The notes under the pieces were generated by a model, which saw nothing but the letters and a program-made list of their open reading frames with translations, ran no database searches and had not been told where the DNA came from. A stretch of DNA of 64,000 nt from Microbotryum violaceum (Eukaryota), in assembly GCA_001244265.2 (NCBI GenBank), contig CDLV01000010.1, positions 1 through 64,000 of the forward strand. Direction: 5' to 3'. How positions within the stretch are numbered: the first letter of the stretch is position 1; every line of letters starts with the position of its first letter. The position numbers were made by a program, and so were the translations under genes. This document shows, in pieces, positions 5,646 to 50,011 of this stretch.

Positions 5646-6527
5646 AGTCTGTGCCATGTGATATTTGGCAATGGCCCATATATACAGTGGATTTCAGCAG
5701 TGCGCGAGCAATTGACCGTGCACCTCGATTCGACGGTTTTTGGCGTGTGCCGCCCTTCAGAGTCGAAAAAGTGGATTTTAGCAGTGCACGAGCAATCGAC
5801 CGTGCACCTCGATTTGACGGTTTTGCCAAAAAAGTGGATTTCAGCAGTGCACGAGCAATCGACCGTGCACCTCGATTTGACGGTTTTTGACTTGTGCCGC
5901 CCTTCAGAGTCGAAAAAGTGGATTTCAGCAGTGCACGAGCAATCGACCGTGCACCTCGATTTGACGGTTTTTGGCGTGTGCCGCCCTTCAGAGTCGAAAA
6001 AGTGGATTTTAGCAGTGCACGAGCAATCGACCGTGCACCTCGATTTGACGGTTTTTGGCTTGTGCCGCCCTTCAGAGTCGAAAAAGTGGATTTCAGCAGT
6101 GCACGAGCAATTGACCGTGCACCTTGATTTGACGGTTTTTGGCTTGTGCCGCCCTTCAGAGTCGAAAAAGTGGATTTCAGCAGTGCACGAGCAATCGACC
6201 GTGCACCTCGATTTGACGGTTTTGCCGAAAAAGTGGATTTCAGCAGTGCACGAGCAATTGACCGTGCACCTCGATTTGACGATTTTCGGCTTGTGCCGCC
6301 CTTCAGAGTCGAAAAAGTGGATTTTAGCAGTGCACGAGCAATCGACCGTGCACCTCGATTTGACGGTTTTTGACTCGTGCCGCCCTTCAGAGTCGAAAAA
6401 GTGGATTTCAGCAGTGCACGAGCAATTGACCGTGCACTGTCAATTTTCATTTTCACTGGGAATTTGGGGTTCTATTCCAAAACGTATCCCGGAATTGGCC
6501 TGTACCCCACCTATGATACGTATATAC
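5646..6527. repeat. 84-bp tandem-array element, copy 2 (both termini present)
   Basis: Left terminus AGTCTGTGCCATGTGATATTTGGCAATGGCCCATATATAC, then ~9.5 units (two shortened to 63 bp), then the same right terminus as copies 1 and 3. Confidence 0.95.
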
Positions 6528-6724
6528 TGCCCCGTAACCCATCACGCCCAGGGCCTTCACAGTAAGTTGGCCACAGTGAGTTGGCCCATAATAGACCGAG
6601 CTTGGCCTTGTTTTGATTCGTATGACTGACGCCACTGGCCCACGCCCCAATTGGGGCCGTTGCAGTGACCGCCCGCGCCGACACGAACCTCGCGCGCCCG
6701 AGCGCCGGCGCGTCGACAGGGCCA

Positions 6725-25104: not shown

Positions 25105-27453
<2,349 letters not shown>

Positions 27454-29662
27454 TTTTTTTTTTTTTGTAGAACTTGTTCATCATATTGCCCCCAATTCCT
27501 GTTCCCCTGATTGGCTTACGGAAAAACTAGATGGAAGTCGACGATGATAACACAAACCGCCCGCAAGATGCGAGAAACGGGCCGGTCTCCACCAATCCGA
27601 TACTTGGGATTCAAGTGCCCCAGCCAAGCGGTTGCTCCCCCCAGGAGACGAATGAGAGAGAGAAGGAGAGAGAAAGAGAAAGAGAAAGGAGTAATAAAAC
27701 AATTTACTAAGCGACAAGAGGCCCACCCTGCCGTCACTTCCCAACTCGGTCGAGACAAAGACAGGAGATCGACTGCGCAACTACCCTGACCCGCGAAGTC
27801 CTAAGTCTATGCGCGGTCACAACAAGACGCGGTGGAGGCCCCTCAAAACCTCCACCTCAGCAGTCCCTGGCCCCTCAAAGCCGACTTTCTGCCTGTGTCT
27901 GCTGATCCCTCCCTTGACTCAGAACCCCGAAGCCAAAGAGCGCGAGTCACCGTCGAGTCAATCTCAAATCGCGAGCCGGTCCATGAGCAACGAAGGCAGA
28001 CCTGTAATAGATGAAAGATGAAAGCAAGATATTTAGTATACAGTGTTTTGTTGGAAGATGAAGCGTGATGGTGTGTGTGTGTGGGGTGTGGTGGGGGGAA
28101 ATCGAACCCAGCCTCTACTGCCCTCGCCCGCCCCTTGCTCCTCCCGCCCTCAACTTCATCCTCTCCTCCAGTACCACCCTCCTCCTCTCCACGCTTTCCA
28201 TCCTCGTCCCGTGCTTCTGCATCCTCCATCTCCCACTGCTGATCATCTCCAAAACCCCCGTGAAGATCTCGATCGTCCAGCCCGCCCCTTCCTGTTCGCT
28301 GAGCTTGGCCTTGAGCTTGGGGAGGCCAAAGAGCCGTTGCAGTGTCGTGTACTGAGCGTCCTCGATCGTGTCGCACCCGAGTGCGTCGCAGAGCACGCCC
28401 TTTGCCGCGATCCAGACGTTCCGCGAGTCAACGCAGCCGAAAAAGTAGTGGTCGGTGTCGTCCACCGGCGCTTCGCAGACGAGGCACGCGGGAGAAGTGT
28501 CGTGATTCTGTTGGTGTTGCAGCTTGCGCGTCGGGGTGAAGCGGAGAATCAGCTTGAACCAAACTTCCCTCTCCCTCGCCGTCAGTGCCTTCGAGTTGAC
28601 CGCCTTCCAAAAGCTCCTGAGGTCGTCCGGCTGCGGTGGTCCCTTGAGCCCGAGCGTGTTGGTAAAGGCCTTCGCGTTCAGGACCCGGCGGATGCGACGG
28701 ATGGTGTACGGTCGAGCCATGTTCAGCAGCTTGTACTGGCTCGCCTGCTGTGGAAGAACCGGGTCCGGAAGGCGCTGCTCCATTGCGAAGCGGGCCACGG
28801 GCTTGGGGAGAATCGCCTCGAGCGGTGCGCTGGTGCAGATCCGGGGAGGCACGTTGAGCCGTCCTGCCGCCACCGCCACCGCCACCGCTAAGGGCGTGTT
28901 CTTGTGTCGATCGACAGTGAACCGGTACCAGGCCGCGATTGCCAGTCGCTGCGGGAGCCCGCGTCGATCGTACTCGCTGTTGTCGCCGAGCACATCCGCC
29001 GGCGGCGTCCAAAGGTGAAACCCCCCACCCGCATACAACTCGCGCCGGTAGAGATCCGCCACCTTCGGGTAGCCCTGGAGACGAAGGTAGTCAGGTATAT
29101 GAACCGCGTCGATGGTCTGTCTCCCTCTGATGGGGGTGTGGAGGCTGCCGAGCAAGGTGGGAAGCGCGAGCAGGTTCGCGGTGGTCAAGGTCCTCGGGTT
29201 GACCTGCGCGTCTTGCTGTTTCGGAACCCCCAATGCTGCTCGCCATCGGGAATGGAGGTCGCTGGGGATGGGAGTGGATGGATGTGGCCAGAGATCGGTG
29301 GCCAGGTCGAGGTCGGACTGAGCTCGCTGGAGTGCCGCGCGCGCAAGTCCTTGCCAGATCGCGCCCGAACCGCCGAGAAGAACGTCCCAGATCCGTGCCG
29401 CAACCGCGTCCACGACGTCCTGCATCCTGATCACCCGAGTCCACCCTTGAGCTTGGCTGTGAACACGATATCTCTGCCGTAGCTGGTCCTGCCCTTGCCC
29501 CACGGACGAAATCGACGAGCATGTCATCGAGCTTCTTGACGACTTCGGGCGGCGGGATGTCGGCTGCAAGGAAGTGCAGGATCTTGGGGATGGCGTACCG
29601 ATTGACGTAAAAGGCACGGGTGTGGTGTGTGAGCCAGCGATGCTGAAACCCTTCCAGCGTCG
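27454..29662 (-). mobile_element. L1/Tx1-like non-LTR retrotransposon family 2, 5'-truncated, with poly(A) tail
   Basis: T13 at 27454-27466, ~650-bp 3' UTR, and ORF2 C-terminus ending at 28115 (YVNRYAIPKILH...; FWKAVN...WFKLILRFTPT...CLVCEAPVDDTDHYFFGC). Confidence 0.88.
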
Positions 29663-31215
29663 TTTTTTTTTTTTGACTGGGGCTCATAAATTGCAATCCT
29701 TCGGGTTGGCTGGGACCGCTACAAAAAGAGCTAAAGGAGGTTATAAAGCAACGACGGCAAGCAGTTGGGTGAAAGTCAAACCCCTGCGCGCAAAGAGCGC
29801 TGCGCAGATCAAAACCCGCCGAGCACCTAACGCGGACTCCAACGGGCGGTGAGTACTGCTGCCGCTTCACGTCCCAAGAGCGGGAGCAAAGATACTCGAA
29901 AACCAGGCAAGAGCGCCTAGAGAAAGAAGGGGGAGAGTATACAGAAAGTCACAACTGGGGATACGGAGAACCAGGAATACTAAGACAGAGAGGAGGGGAA
30001 CACACCCGAGGGGCCAAGGGAGGGGTCGAAGCCGGAGGTAGAGGTCTCCAGGGACTAACAGGCCGCAGCCAAGCCCCAGCTACTCGTCACCCCGACAGCG
30101 CTTGATGTCCTCCCTTGGCTAAATCTCGAGTGCTGGCTGTTGAGCCGTCGGGGCCGAGAGAAGAGCGATCCAGTACAACGAAACGAGCCTCGCCTTGACG
30201 TGAGGATATTGACCAGAAACGAGCGACCTTCCTTCCCGAGCCATGCCGTAGATCTTGACCAACGCGAACGAACGAACCATTCAACGGAATCCAACACACG
30301 GCTTAGGAGTAAAAGGAGAAGTGGCTGAAGCGTAGTCAACAACCGAGCAACAGGAACGAGAAGAGGAAGGGAAGGGAAAAAGGGGGGAAAGGAGAGGGAA
30401 AAACTTCACAAAGCCTCCAACGCAAAGACAATCGACCTGGCTTGCCGATCCATCCAAGAACAAAAAACCGCTACTGCGCAAAGTAGAGAGAGAGAGAGAG
30501 GTGCGCAGCCTTCCACTGCGCAACAAGTTCCAAGACAGTCAGCTCACAAAAGAGGAGTCGACCTCCGAAAAAGAAGGGAGGAAAGGAGGGGAGGAAAATG
30601 GGAAGGAAGGACTTAACTCGGTCATCACACCTCCCAATCTCGAACCCCAGGCACAAAACCCGCTCGAGAGAGAAAATCTCGCTCGAACGCTCTGAGTGCA
30701 CTGGGGAGCGAGGGAGGGGCCACGACCTTGTCCAGCTCGAACCGCTGATGAACGCGCCAGCGGAGCAGGTGCAGCCGCTGGAAGCCGATCGCGCAGGCCA
30801 GCCGAACCCACATCCATCTCGAGGTCGTTCTCCCACGACCCCGCAAAAGGGGGAGCCCCATAGTCAGCTGCTCCGGAGTGAACGTCGACGGATCGACGTC
30901 GGTATCCTCGATGCCCAGCTTGTCGAACAGAATGCGAAGCACCCCACCCCAGAAGCTGGTCGAGTACGCGCACTCGAAGAAGTAGTGCGACACCGTCTCG
31001 ATGACCGCTGCATCGTTGCCGCAGAACAGACACGTCGGCGAAGAGGCATGACCCTGAGTATGCTGCCTCTTGCGCGTCGGCGTCACGTCGTACATGAGCC
31101 GCCAGTGGGTGTCCTGCTCCACAGCAGACGCAAACCGGTCATGAAGCCATCTCCAGAAGCGCTTCCTATCGCTCTGAGAAGTCCCATCACGGAAACGCTT
31201 GACACGATCCTCTCG
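29663..31215 (-). mobile_element. L1/Tx1-like family 1, 5'-truncated, with complete ~950-bp 3' UTR and poly(A) tail
   Basis: T12 at 29663-29674, 3' end ...ATGAGCCCCAGTC(A)n, zf-RVT ORF end with stop at 30625. Confidence 0.88.
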
Positions 31216-31418
31216 TTTTTTTTTTTTTTTTTGACTGGGGCTCATAAATTGCAATCCTTCGGGTTGGCTGGGACCGCTACAAAAAGAGCTAAAGGAGGTT
31301 ATAAAGAAACGACGGCAAGCAGTTGGGTGAAAGTCAAACCCCTGCGCGCAAAGAGCGCTGCGCAGATCAAAACCCGCCGAGCACCTAACGCGGACTCCAA
31401 CGGGCGGTGAGCTCTCGC
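31216..31418 (-). mobile_element. Family 1 3'-terminal stub (~180 bp plus tail)
   Basis: T17, then sequence nearly identical to 29675-29853. Confidence 0.9.
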
Positions 31419-31970
31419 TTTTTTTTTTTTGTAGAACGCCTTTTTTTTTTTTGTAGAAAACGTTCATCATATTGCCCCCAGTTCCTGTTCCCCCTGTTTT
31501 GGCCTACGGAAAAACTAGATGGAAGACTACGATGATAACACAAACCGCCCGCAAAAGTGCGAGAAACGAGCCAAGTCCACCAATCCGAGATTCGGATTCA
31601 AATGCCCTAGCCAAGCGGTTGCTCCCCCCAGGAGACTAATGAGAGAGAGAAAGAGAGATGAAGAGAAAAAAAGAAAGAAAAGAAATGTACTAACGACAGA
31701 AGGCCCACCCCACAGCCACTTCCCACTCGGTCGAGACGAAGACAAGAGCACGACTGCGCAACCACCACGACCCTCGACGCTCCAAGTCTCTGCTCAGTCA
31801 CAACAAGACGCGGTGAAGGTCCCTCAAAACCTCCCCCATCGGCAGTCCCTGGCCCCTCAAAGCCGACTTTCTGCCTGTGTCCGCTGATCCCTCCCTTGAC
31901 TCAGAACCCCGAAGCCGAAGAGCGCGAGCCACACCGAGTCGACGCCAAATCGCGAGATGGTCCAAACGCC
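31419..31970 (-). mobile_element. Family 2 micro-stub (T12-GTAGAACGCC) followed by family 2 3' UTR stub (~515 bp plus tail)
   Basis: 31453-31963 aligns with 27467-27983; both start (T)n-GTAGAA. Confidence 0.88.
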
Positions 31971-32015
31971 TTTTTTTTTTTTGTAGCCTTTTTTTTTTGT
32001 AGCCGTTTTTTTTTT
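31971..32015 (-). mobile_element. Two family 2 micro-stubs (T12-GTAGCC, T10-GTAGCCG) and terminal T10 (putative target tract)
   Basis: GTAG right after each T tract equals the last 4 nt of family 2. Confidence 0.6.
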
Positions 32016-32064
32016 GAAATGTTGATTTTATAAAGGCAAAACAAAGATCACCCTAAGCTTCTGT

Positions 32065-32146
32065 GCTTTCGTGGTGTAGTGGTTATCACATATGCTTTAC
32101 ACTCATTGGACGCATCAGGTCCCCGGTTCGAACCCGGGCGAAAGCA
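32065..32146 (+). tRNA. tRNA-Val(TAC) with ~9-nt canonical intron
   Basis: Acceptor stem GCTTTCG/CGAAAGC, A box TGGTGTAGTGG, anticodon TAC at 32098-32100, intron ~32102-32110, T arm CCCGG-TTCGAAC-CCGGG. Upstream TTTATAAA at ~32027. Confidence 0.92.
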
Positions 32147-32155
32147 TTTTTTTTT
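32147..32155 (+). terminator. Pol III oligo(T) terminator
   Basis: T9 directly after the discriminator base. Confidence 0.85.
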
Positions 32156-33172: not shown

Positions 33173-33425
33173 AGTCTGTGCCATGTGGTATTTGGCAATT
33201 GCCCATATATACAGTGGATTTCAGCAGTGCACGAGCAATTGACCGTGCACCTCGATTTGACGGTTTTTGGCTTGTGCCGCCCTTCAACGTCGAAAAAGTG
33301 GATTTCAGCAGTGCACGAGCAATTGACCGTGCACTGTCAATTTTCATTTTCACTGGGAATTTGGGGTTCTATTCCAAAACGTATCCCGGAAATGGCCTGT
33401 ACCCCACCTATGATACGTATATACC
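33173..33425. repeat. 84-bp tandem-array element, copy 3 (minimal, ~1.5 units, both termini)
   Basis: Same left and right termini as copy 2. Confidence 0.93.
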
Positions 33426-48879: not shown

Positions 48880-50011
48880 TGAAGATGACTACGCGCGTCT
48901 CCACTTTGTATTATCGCGCGCGCTATTCGCGTCTTTGCTTCCTCTTCTTCACTTGATTATGAACTCATTGGGTCGTCCCTGCCGCCAACTCGTTCAGCAC
49001 ACATCGCTGTTCAGTTTCAATAGGTTATGAGCCCAACCGAGCGGCCAGCCAATTCGAGTCATCAAGACATGACCACTCCTCTCATGGTCACAGGACGAAC
49101 AACCCCTGTCGTCCTCGTCGAACCACGCGAAGTTGACCCATCATGCCATCTGCGAAACACTGGGAGCGGGTCGCAATGGATCGACGACGTGCGGGACGCC
49201 CTTGGCGGCGAGTGCTGTCTGCCGGAATTGCACCCTCGCGACGCCGTCCGATCACCAAACACGCGCACGGACCTCAATCACGCTAATTTCCAAGCGGTCG
49301 CGCTGCTGATGCGTTCTGTCTCACCTGACATCCGCAAGCACATCACAGATGGTTACGATCACACTCCTGCGGAAGTTTTGCAGATGATCAAGAACGCGGT
49401 CGGTACCGGCACGGTGGCTGACATCCTCATCCGTCTCCAAGCGTTGCTCGATGTGGGAGCTCCTCCCACCTCGACGCTGGTGAGACGGGCTTGGGAGCTG
49501 GCGTCTGATCCGCCTGCGTGTGAAGCGACTGAAAGACTTCCGTCGGGCTTGGTAGCTTGTACAAGCCTTGCCTAAGCGTCTGTGTGTAGTACTCACGATA
49601 CATGTCCTTGCCGAAGTGGACAAGGCGGAACGACACGATCTGCTCAAAAGTAAGCCCCGTGTCCCAAGAGCGTGTTAAAGGGCTCGATGGTCGTCGCTTG
49701 GTACTTCGCGAAGGCGTCCATGCCGGTGGGAGGAGGTCCCACGTCGAGCAACGCTTGGAGACGGATGAGGATGTCAGCCACCGTGCCGGTACCGACCGCG
49801 TTCTTGATCATCTGCAAAACTTCCGCAGGAGTGTGATCGTAACCATCTGTGATGTGCTTGCGGATGTCAGGTGAGACAGAACGCATCAGCAGCGCGACCG
49901 CTTGGAAATTAGCGTGATTGAGGTCCGTGCGCGTGTTTGGTGATCGGACGGCGTCGCGAGGGTGCAATTCCGGCAGACAGCACTCGCCGCCAAGGGCGTC
50001 CCGCACGTCGT
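48880..50011 (+). mobile_element. Ty1/Copia remnant: ~140-bp LTR, PBS and gag fragment folded back on itself
   Basis: TGAA...TTCA (48880-49019), then GGTTATGAGCCC (49023-49034), the Copia-type PBS complementary to the initiator tRNA-Met anticodon arm, then a gag-like ORF. 49184-49470 is inverted at 49725-50011. Confidence 0.75.

Follow-up and report, generated by a model that had tools for sequence, protein, structure and literature searches.

The closest described counterparts of the system reported here are TRE5-A, the other TRE5 elements and NLTR-B of dictyostelids, retrotransposons without long terminal repeats (non-LTR) that lie about 40-90 bp upstream of transfer RNA (tRNA) genes, in opposite orientation and in tandem stacks. 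TRE5 elements occur as TRE-TRE tandems, with new copies arriving on the proximal side, and also insert at non-tRNA loci with A and B boxes (PMC5391098); the product of the first open reading frame (ORF1) of TRE5-A contacts TBP, Brf1 and Bdp1, and mutation of the B box abolishes targeting (PMC5911963, PMC5391098). All TREs together occupy 61% of tRNA genes (PMC5391098). These statements, and those below that cite an article by number, PMC10502011 excepted, refer to the excerpts available to us. Among fungi, Ty1/Ty3, Tj1 and Tyl6 likewise sit upstream of RNA polymerase III (Pol III) genes, but they are integrase-based LTR elements (PMC5911963). Zorro3 of Candida albicans is, like the elements described here, a fungal member of the L1 superfamily with A-runs at its junctions, and it targets poly(A) without known regional preference (PMC7175516); at the present sites the Pol III gene sets the position and most first junctions are free of A-runs.

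Here we describe a stack of long interspersed nuclear elements (LINEs) beside a tRNA-Val(TAC) gene in a 64,000-nt stretch of Microbotryum violaceum (the window; assembly GCA_001244265.2, contig CDLV01000010.1, positions 1 to 64,000 of the forward strand), together with the corresponding sites of the genome (33 Mb, 20 contigs). Such stacks very probably arise by separate target-primed insertions of L1-group elements that are steered to 45-85 bp upstream of Pol III genes, with the newest copy nearest the tRNA. Position above the gene, orientation and tandem stacking are shared with the dictyostelid elements, and stacking and proximal entry are already known for TRE5-A. What differs is the fungal host, the use of each site by three families in stacks of up to seven long units, the near saturation (38 of 40 genes against 61% for all TREs), the decoy LTRs, a slightly wider and more distal window of insertion (median 64 bp), the stubs, and an ORF1 with a CCHC knuckle. 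The fungal elements thus work like TRE5 and are not classed as members of it; none of 20 relatives looked up was dictyostelid.

The excerpt of PMC5911963 tabulates tRNA-targeting non-LTR elements only for dictyostelids (Table 1). The main text of PMC10502011 does not contain the word tRNA, and the excerpt of PMC4469406 gives 134 tRNAs and 392 LINE copies and draws no link between them. No report of tRNA-targeting LINEs in fungi was found in the literature covered, including the excerpts of PMC5911963, PMC7175516, PMC5006619, PMC5391098 and PMC10886601; supplements, Repbase and subscription journals lay outside it, so an earlier mention is possible.

The stack upstream of tRNA-Val(TAC) and its element families

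A first-pass annotation, made from the letters of the window, had placed two alternating LINE families at 27454..31970. The array extends beyond these bounds on both sides (26671-32015) and consists of eight units from two L1-group families, 5'-truncated and poly(A)-tailed, all on the minus strand and with A-runs between them. Its near edge lies 49 bp upstream of the tRNA gene, which is on the opposite strand. From far to near the tRNA the families follow in the order 1,2,1,1,2,2,2,2, as had been proposed; this order holds if the eroded family-1 copy at 26671-27453 and the stubs at 31431-31440, 31983-31988 and 31999-32005 are counted, so that three of the units are stubs of 6-10 bp. The features are as follows.

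26671..27453, minus strand: u1, family 1, 5'-truncated, 3' untranslated region (UTR) and tail lost; farthest out and oldest; zf-RVT E 1.2e-5 (below the Pfam cut-off)
27454..29662, minus strand: u2, family 2, older subfamily, ends AAGTTCTAC, 648-bp UTR, A13 tail; zf-RVT E 9.6e-6; nearest copy 1.6% diverged
28115-29662, minus strand: C-terminal part of ORF2 in u2
29663..31215, minus strand: u3, young family 1, 1541 bp + A12, target duplication CGA; zf-RVT E 2.7e-7 (above cut-off); nearest copy 0.2%
31216..31418, minus strand: u4, tip of the family-1 3' UTR, 179 bp + A17, target duplication CGAGAG; nearest copy 0.6%
31419..31440, minus strand: u5, family-2 stub identified from its sequence, TTCTAC + A12, GCG duplication
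31441..31970, minus strand: u6, young family-2 3' UTR, 512 bp + A12, target duplication GGCGTT; nearest copy 0.0%
31971..32015, minus strand: stubs u7 and u8 (GGCTAC-A12, CGGCTAC-A10) along with a bare A10 run, left by aborted insertions or by local duplication
32016..32064, no strand: insertion-free spacer of 49 bp, which would correspond to the expected TFIIIB footprint
32065..32146, plus strand: tRNA-Val(TAC) gene, anchor of the array (ARAGORN; Rfam RF00005, 54.1 bits)
32147-32155: its T9 terminator

The two families were as first described: family 1 ends GAGCCCCAGTC(A)n and has a 950-bp UTR and the motif CLFC...HYFF(G/E)C, and family 2 ends TTCTAC(A)n and has a 648-bp UTR and the motif CLVC...HYFFGC. 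Blastn matched the two families only in one 64-bp patch of 70% identity (the zinc finger) and a 21-bp low-complexity stretch; their UTRs do not align. Copies of one family had been called visibly diverged, which is true of u1/u3 (87.9% identity) and u2/u6 (85.4%) and not of u3/u4 (99.4%). The eroded u1 is 87% identical to a young family-1 reference, its nearest other copy is 2.1% off, and the median of its best three is 8.1%.

A third family, ending TTTCATAC(A)n, was found elsewhere in the genome. Matches to the 3' ends numbered 108 for family 1, 76 for the older family-2 ends and 59 for family 3, the young family-2 end being left out of these counts. Full-length copies measure 6.7, 7.0-7.1 and 7.6 kb and have simple repeats at their 5' ends. 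Copies are 96-99% alike and often frameshifted; as assembly error is indistinguishable from mutation, unit ages were taken from substitutions only. ORF1 carries a CCHC knuckle in all three families and gave no Pfam match; its top Atlas match (0.91) is unnamed, and leads to zf-CCHC/RRM clusters score <0.9. Taken across families, ORF2 carries APE endonuclease, reverse transcriptase (RT) and zf-RVT domains. Exo_endo_phos exceeded the cut-off in families 1 and 3; it gave no match in the scanned family-2c copy and is present in the family-2c homologues P0004-6; RVT_1 exceeded it in families 2c and 3 and was partial in the family-1 piece, and zf-RVT was found in families 1 and 2.

Poly(A) tails, frequent 5' truncation and short, variable target duplications (0-8 bp) match the L1 group, and the closest relative with a solved structure is human L1 ORF2p (E 2e-25, versus 4e-15 for R2). 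On these sequence features we class the elements as L1-group non-LTR retrotransposons, a class that here spans L1 and Tx1, our trees holding no named clade references. In the RT, family 1 is 51% identical to the others, and families 2c and 3 are 67% identical to each other. Of the family-2c homologues, 34/35 are annotated in Microbotryum species, as are close homologues of family 1; all three families have close homologues in M. intermedium, M. saponariae and M. silenes-dioicae. The nearest named relatives belong to Microbotryomycetes, followed by Chlamydomonas and Pseudozyma.

Insertion sites at tRNA genes and tRNA-like repeats

Fifty-one tRNA-like sites scored above the Rfam cut-off, with 63 of 950 candidates scored, and a box pattern (100 of its 149 matches listed) yielded four further genes, chosen by eye, and exposed two tRNA-like repeats, X and Y. 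Three Rfam matches were moved to the Y list. The 52 sites read comprised 40 nuclear genes (that of the window included), two segmental twins, which were dropped, five Y copies and five low-GC copies. The last have 34-37% GC versus 46-69% in the others and are taken, by composition only, to be mitochondrial insertions.

A stack upstream of the gene, with its element pointing away, was present at 38 of the 40 nuclear genes, L091 and L103 being empty, and at none of the five mitochondrial-type copies (Fisher p 1.7e-5). The nearest foreign base lies 45-85 bp from the gene in 35/38 (median 64), and there is one orientation throughout. Stacks hold up to seven long units; 33 of the 36 multi-unit arrays mix families and 11 contain all three. 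Of 88 junctions in these 36 arrays, 65 join different families, versus 57 +/- 4.4 with shuffled labels (p 0.04), a count that leaves out stubs and in which merged pieces undercount same-family neighbours. Strict alternation was accordingly rejected, the switch rate being near that of shuffled labels; "alternate" in the first description was too strong, and interleaving of the three families is near-random.

Two motifs were noted upstream of these genes (e.g. L094, L096, L097, L103, L105). GGGGGCGG occurs 48-78 bp upstream in 7/40 tRNA genes (background 3/2030 windows) and CACGTG in 7/40 upstream regions (background 3%). Both often sit just ahead of the insertion point, and both empty genes carry the G-rich motif. 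A stack is present even at L062 (G000:C3:427527), an unusual tRNA-Cys(GCA)-like gene whose D arm is non-standard.

Viewed from the elements, for 87 of the 235 listed 3' ends (100 of the 108 family-1 matches, plus 76 and 59) a listed Pol III-type unit lies no more than 12 kb away, on the 5' side and on the opposite strand; the other three geometries gave 7, 16 and 8, with about 2% expected by chance. Because the list of Pol III units was incomplete, element loci lacking a listed unit were fetched. At seven of 16 loci without a listed tRNA (15 of family 3, one of family 1), the first foreign base was 54-75 bp away from an unlisted tRNA gene or an X copy. Twenty further loci, of families 1 and 2, were drawn from contigs 1-2 among 85 unexplained clusters, and eight had a strong A-box 75-96 nt away, versus 1.7% of 3490 control windows. 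These eight A-box units are X, Y or A-box-only repeats, some of them mutual duplicates; several of the remaining junctions are interrupted by other elements. An Rfam scan of 17 of the 20 gave no match at the gathering score, and thus no 5S, U6 or SRP target.

Repeat X has an ARAGORN anticodon TTA and at least 25 copies among the matches listed, some paired about 306 bp apart (examples L112, L114, L116, L044, L124, L228). Repeat Y is an LTR unit of about 157 bp (TGTTG...CAACA) with a tRNA-like core, present in at least 36 copies among the matches listed on contigs 1-8 (examples L111, L115, L119, L087, L107, L017). Exact 5-bp duplications flank 6/14 Y copies and are found at solo copies, and a purine tract precedes 4/14 (by eye). 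With its LTR, tRNA-like core and 5-bp duplication, Y looks like Helenus, of which none was found in Microbotryum according to the excerpt of PMC10886601. Coordinates indicate that at least 7 of 25 X copies and at least 10 of 36 Y copies are occupied; the five unselected Y copies had no element within 200 bp. The tRNA-like repeats are hit and the mitochondrial-type copies are not, at most an indirect sign of dependence on the B box and TFIIIC. Position is set from an A-box unit lying within unrelated flanking sequence, with a single orientation and proximal entry.

Order of insertion and stubs

The first-pass annotation had read the array as a time-ordered record, provided that new copies enter beside the tRNA, and such a record with such entry is supported by an age gradient and by nested target duplications, and weakly by strain differences. 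Age was measured per unit as divergence to the nearest other fetched copy, in 34 arrays with at least two units of >=100 bp; the values of u2 and u3 come out lower because their relatives are over-represented in the comparison set. Among 75 adjacent pairs the distal neighbour was the more diverged in 55 and the less diverged in 18, with 2 ties. The outermost unit exceeded the innermost in 29/34 arrays and fell below it in 4, and none of 5000 within-array permutations matched the observed order. For units with an intact 3' end the figures were 38 versus 12 pairs and 23 versus 4 last-over-first, for families 1 and 2 alone 27 versus 8, and for true tRNA genes alone 34 versus 12, L110 being left out of the subset tests as a likely twin. 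Within a single stack, unit ages can lie as far as about 14% apart. In the window the divergences from near to far were 0.0, 0.6, 0.2, 1.6 and 2.1%.

The target duplications of the window nest in time order, free of any clock and leaving the relative order of u4 and u5 unfixed. The CGA on either side of u3 is the start of u2; the CGAGAG around u4 takes in the first bases of u3, and the GGCGTT around u6 those of u5. In none of the three cases does the duplicated leader match the element sequence at the truncation point. When units were removed stepwise by hand, every insertion came out as having occurred 49-59 bp from the tRNA. Over all arrays, duplications of >=6 bp flank 12/109 units versus 2.5% for swapped flanks.

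Contigs of four runs from four studies (X2, X3, X7, X12) lend the order weak support, with differences at the proximal end; the distal junction is not settled by them, as contigs break in repeats. Both X7 and X12 depart from the window sequence at 32015, where X12 joins a family-2 UTR whose truncation point is absent from the window array, a weak join with 26 letters on its short side. X3 stops short of the proximal junction. X2 crosses the stubs into u6, with 17 unplaced gap letters, which speaks against the stubs being an assembly artefact.

At 19/56 sites there are altogether 37 A-runs that lack an element body, and 21/37 have a flanking repeat of >=3 bp (null 20%). Where such a stub includes inserted bases, these mostly read TAC, ATAC, CATAC or TCTAC, which are the tips of families 2 and 3. 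At L235:533-745 (minus strand), about eight stubs follow one another upstream of a tRNA-Leu gene. We read the stubs as aborted target-primed events; some may stem from repeated re-priming or from duplication of a previous stub. Within the first 160 bp of the stack at L066 there is an 85-bp copy of the next unit's 5' end plus A10, with the same truncation point, either a long duplication or an aborted event.

Under the mechanism that we propose, each unit would be a separate target-primed insertion of an L1-group element steered to about 45-85 bp upstream of a Pol III (A/B-box) gene and always facing away from it. As the distance is measured from the gene, a new copy would land between the gene and the previous copy, so that the stack becomes time-ordered. 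The three families use common sites and interleave almost at random, and many events would abort after the poly(A) and 0-6 bases, leaving stubs. Anatomy, position, orientation, occupancy and age order are observed; by analogy with TRE5-A, we infer tethering to the TFIIIC/TFIIIB complex, probably through ORF1, whereby a Pol III factor would hold the element protein-RNA complex beside the TFIIIB footprint.

Several observations weigh against this account. Rank medians of age are not monotonic (0.43, 1.10, 0.84, 1.56, 0.77%), so that the age signal comes chiefly from the first unit, which is the youngest. Duplications of >=4 bp, found in 34/109 units (null 18%), are absent from most. Units u1 (27444) and u3 (31212) are cut at the same family-1 register (5201/5202) despite 12% divergence, which independent events would rarely produce. 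Among the 16 fetched loci, 6 had no unit in range and 3 were unsettled; of the 20 family-1/2 loci, which are in part non-independent, just 8 had the strong A-box, and an intact tRNA gene was seen beside none of their junctions. Given this mixed outcome at the fetched loci, targeting is strong and not exclusive.

Alternative explanations and ancestry of the target preference

The preference had also been proposed to be older than the family split, which is plausible but unproven. The alternative, to which we give somewhat less than an even chance and which opposes this one claim only, is a shared site without shared targeting ancestry: the families evolved the preference separately, or the proteins of one carry the poly(A) RNAs of the others. 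In line with it, the ORF1s of families 1 and 2 give no BLAST match to each other, RT identity is 51%, and neither of two copies of a fourth Microbotryum lineage has a tRNA gene within the 3.5 kb fetched, though both of their 5' ends look rearranged. Speaking for a common origin, all three families use the same window and orientation and have Microbotryum homologues, and in a metagenome relative of family 2 (L161; protein about 80% identical to that of annotated Microbotryum copies) a strong A-box, cut off by another element, lies 67 nt from the 5' repeats. The other 79 of 80 metagenome loci were distant (22-30% identity); ARAGORN tRNA genes occurred in 4/80, all on the element's own strand, a weak control given the short contigs.

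Trees were built with FastTree (88 rows: 63 close and 25 of 89 distant) and IQ-TREE (23 rows). The latter shows an open fork of family 1, families 2 + 3, the fourth Microbotryum lineage, an unnamed pair and a Sporobolomyces/Rhodosporidiobolus group, and monophyly of the three families was neither supported nor rejected (approximately unbiased test, p 0.29). We regard ancestral targeting as an evenly balanced proposition. In its widest form, which we hold tentatively and at slightly less than even odds, an L1-group lineage would have been Pol III-tethered since before the split of Microbotryum and the red yeasts, with ORF1 since diverged beyond alignment, and independently of the amoeba TREs. 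If so, each tRNA gene would carry a dated insertion tape, occupancy would map TFIIIB sites, and tRNA-bearing LTRs spread by other elements would be mobile decoy landing pads.

It is unlikely that a stack is a single insertion, formed as the reverse transcriptase hops from RNA to RNA. At L101:395-490, about 62 bp upstream of a tRNA-Phe gene, repeat X is fused, from its first base to its T-run, ahead of a truncated family-2 LINE, which suggests a template-switch chimera and that X is a Pol III transcript; stubs, moreover, often recur identically (L079, L235). Such chains may explain some stubs and chimeras, and not whole stacks, whose units differ in age as given above and whose internal units bear their own duplications.

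Zorro3-like targeting of poly(A), in which copies enter each other's tails and the tRNA gene only gave the first A/T run, is very unlikely. It would account for the A-run at every window junction, for several duplications that can be extended into the A-run and for the 14/38 proximal junctions that start with an A-run. The other 24 of 38 have no run of >=7 A before the element, insertions beside repeat X lie at 53-72 bp in A-poor DNA, and landing in tails would place new copies distally, when the youngest are proximal. As the main cause it is contradicted by the A-run-free first junctions and the opposite age polarity.

Random insertion with selection sparing tRNA flanks, or segmental duplication of one array, is scarcely credible: some sites are segmental twins (L072/L073, the two L097 sites, L121/L137), but selection fails to account for a window of 40 bp, a single orientation and an occupancy of 95%, the geometry counts already contradict it, and truncation points and family order differ among arrays. 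Within the window, too, junctions shared between units would have indicated duplication; the junctions differ, as do truncation points, ages and target duplications, and tandem or segmental duplication of the long units is therefore rejected.

Separate, steered insertion would provide a second case of tRNA-targeting non-LTR elements, in a culturable fungus with many genomes, in which TFIIIB contact and the frequency with which such targeting evolves can be tested. From ordered stacks one can read which subfamilies were active before others with no need of a molecular clock, and distance-based targeting by an L1-type enzyme is relevant to site-directed insertion tools.

Directly past u1 lies a helicase-like gene fragment (25105-26646, minus strand; Helicase_C E 0.0077, below cut-off) with an in-frame stop and apparently without its N-terminal half; a single deletion may have removed the missing part together with the tail of u1. 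In four other runs, a contig of two-copy depth diverges from the window beyond 26645. An 84-bp tandem repeat, probably subtelomeric, occurs at the contig start (49-919), again at 5646-6529 and as one lone unit at 33173-33424, and a 287-bp inverted repeat, 99.3% identical, lies at 49184-50011 of the window.

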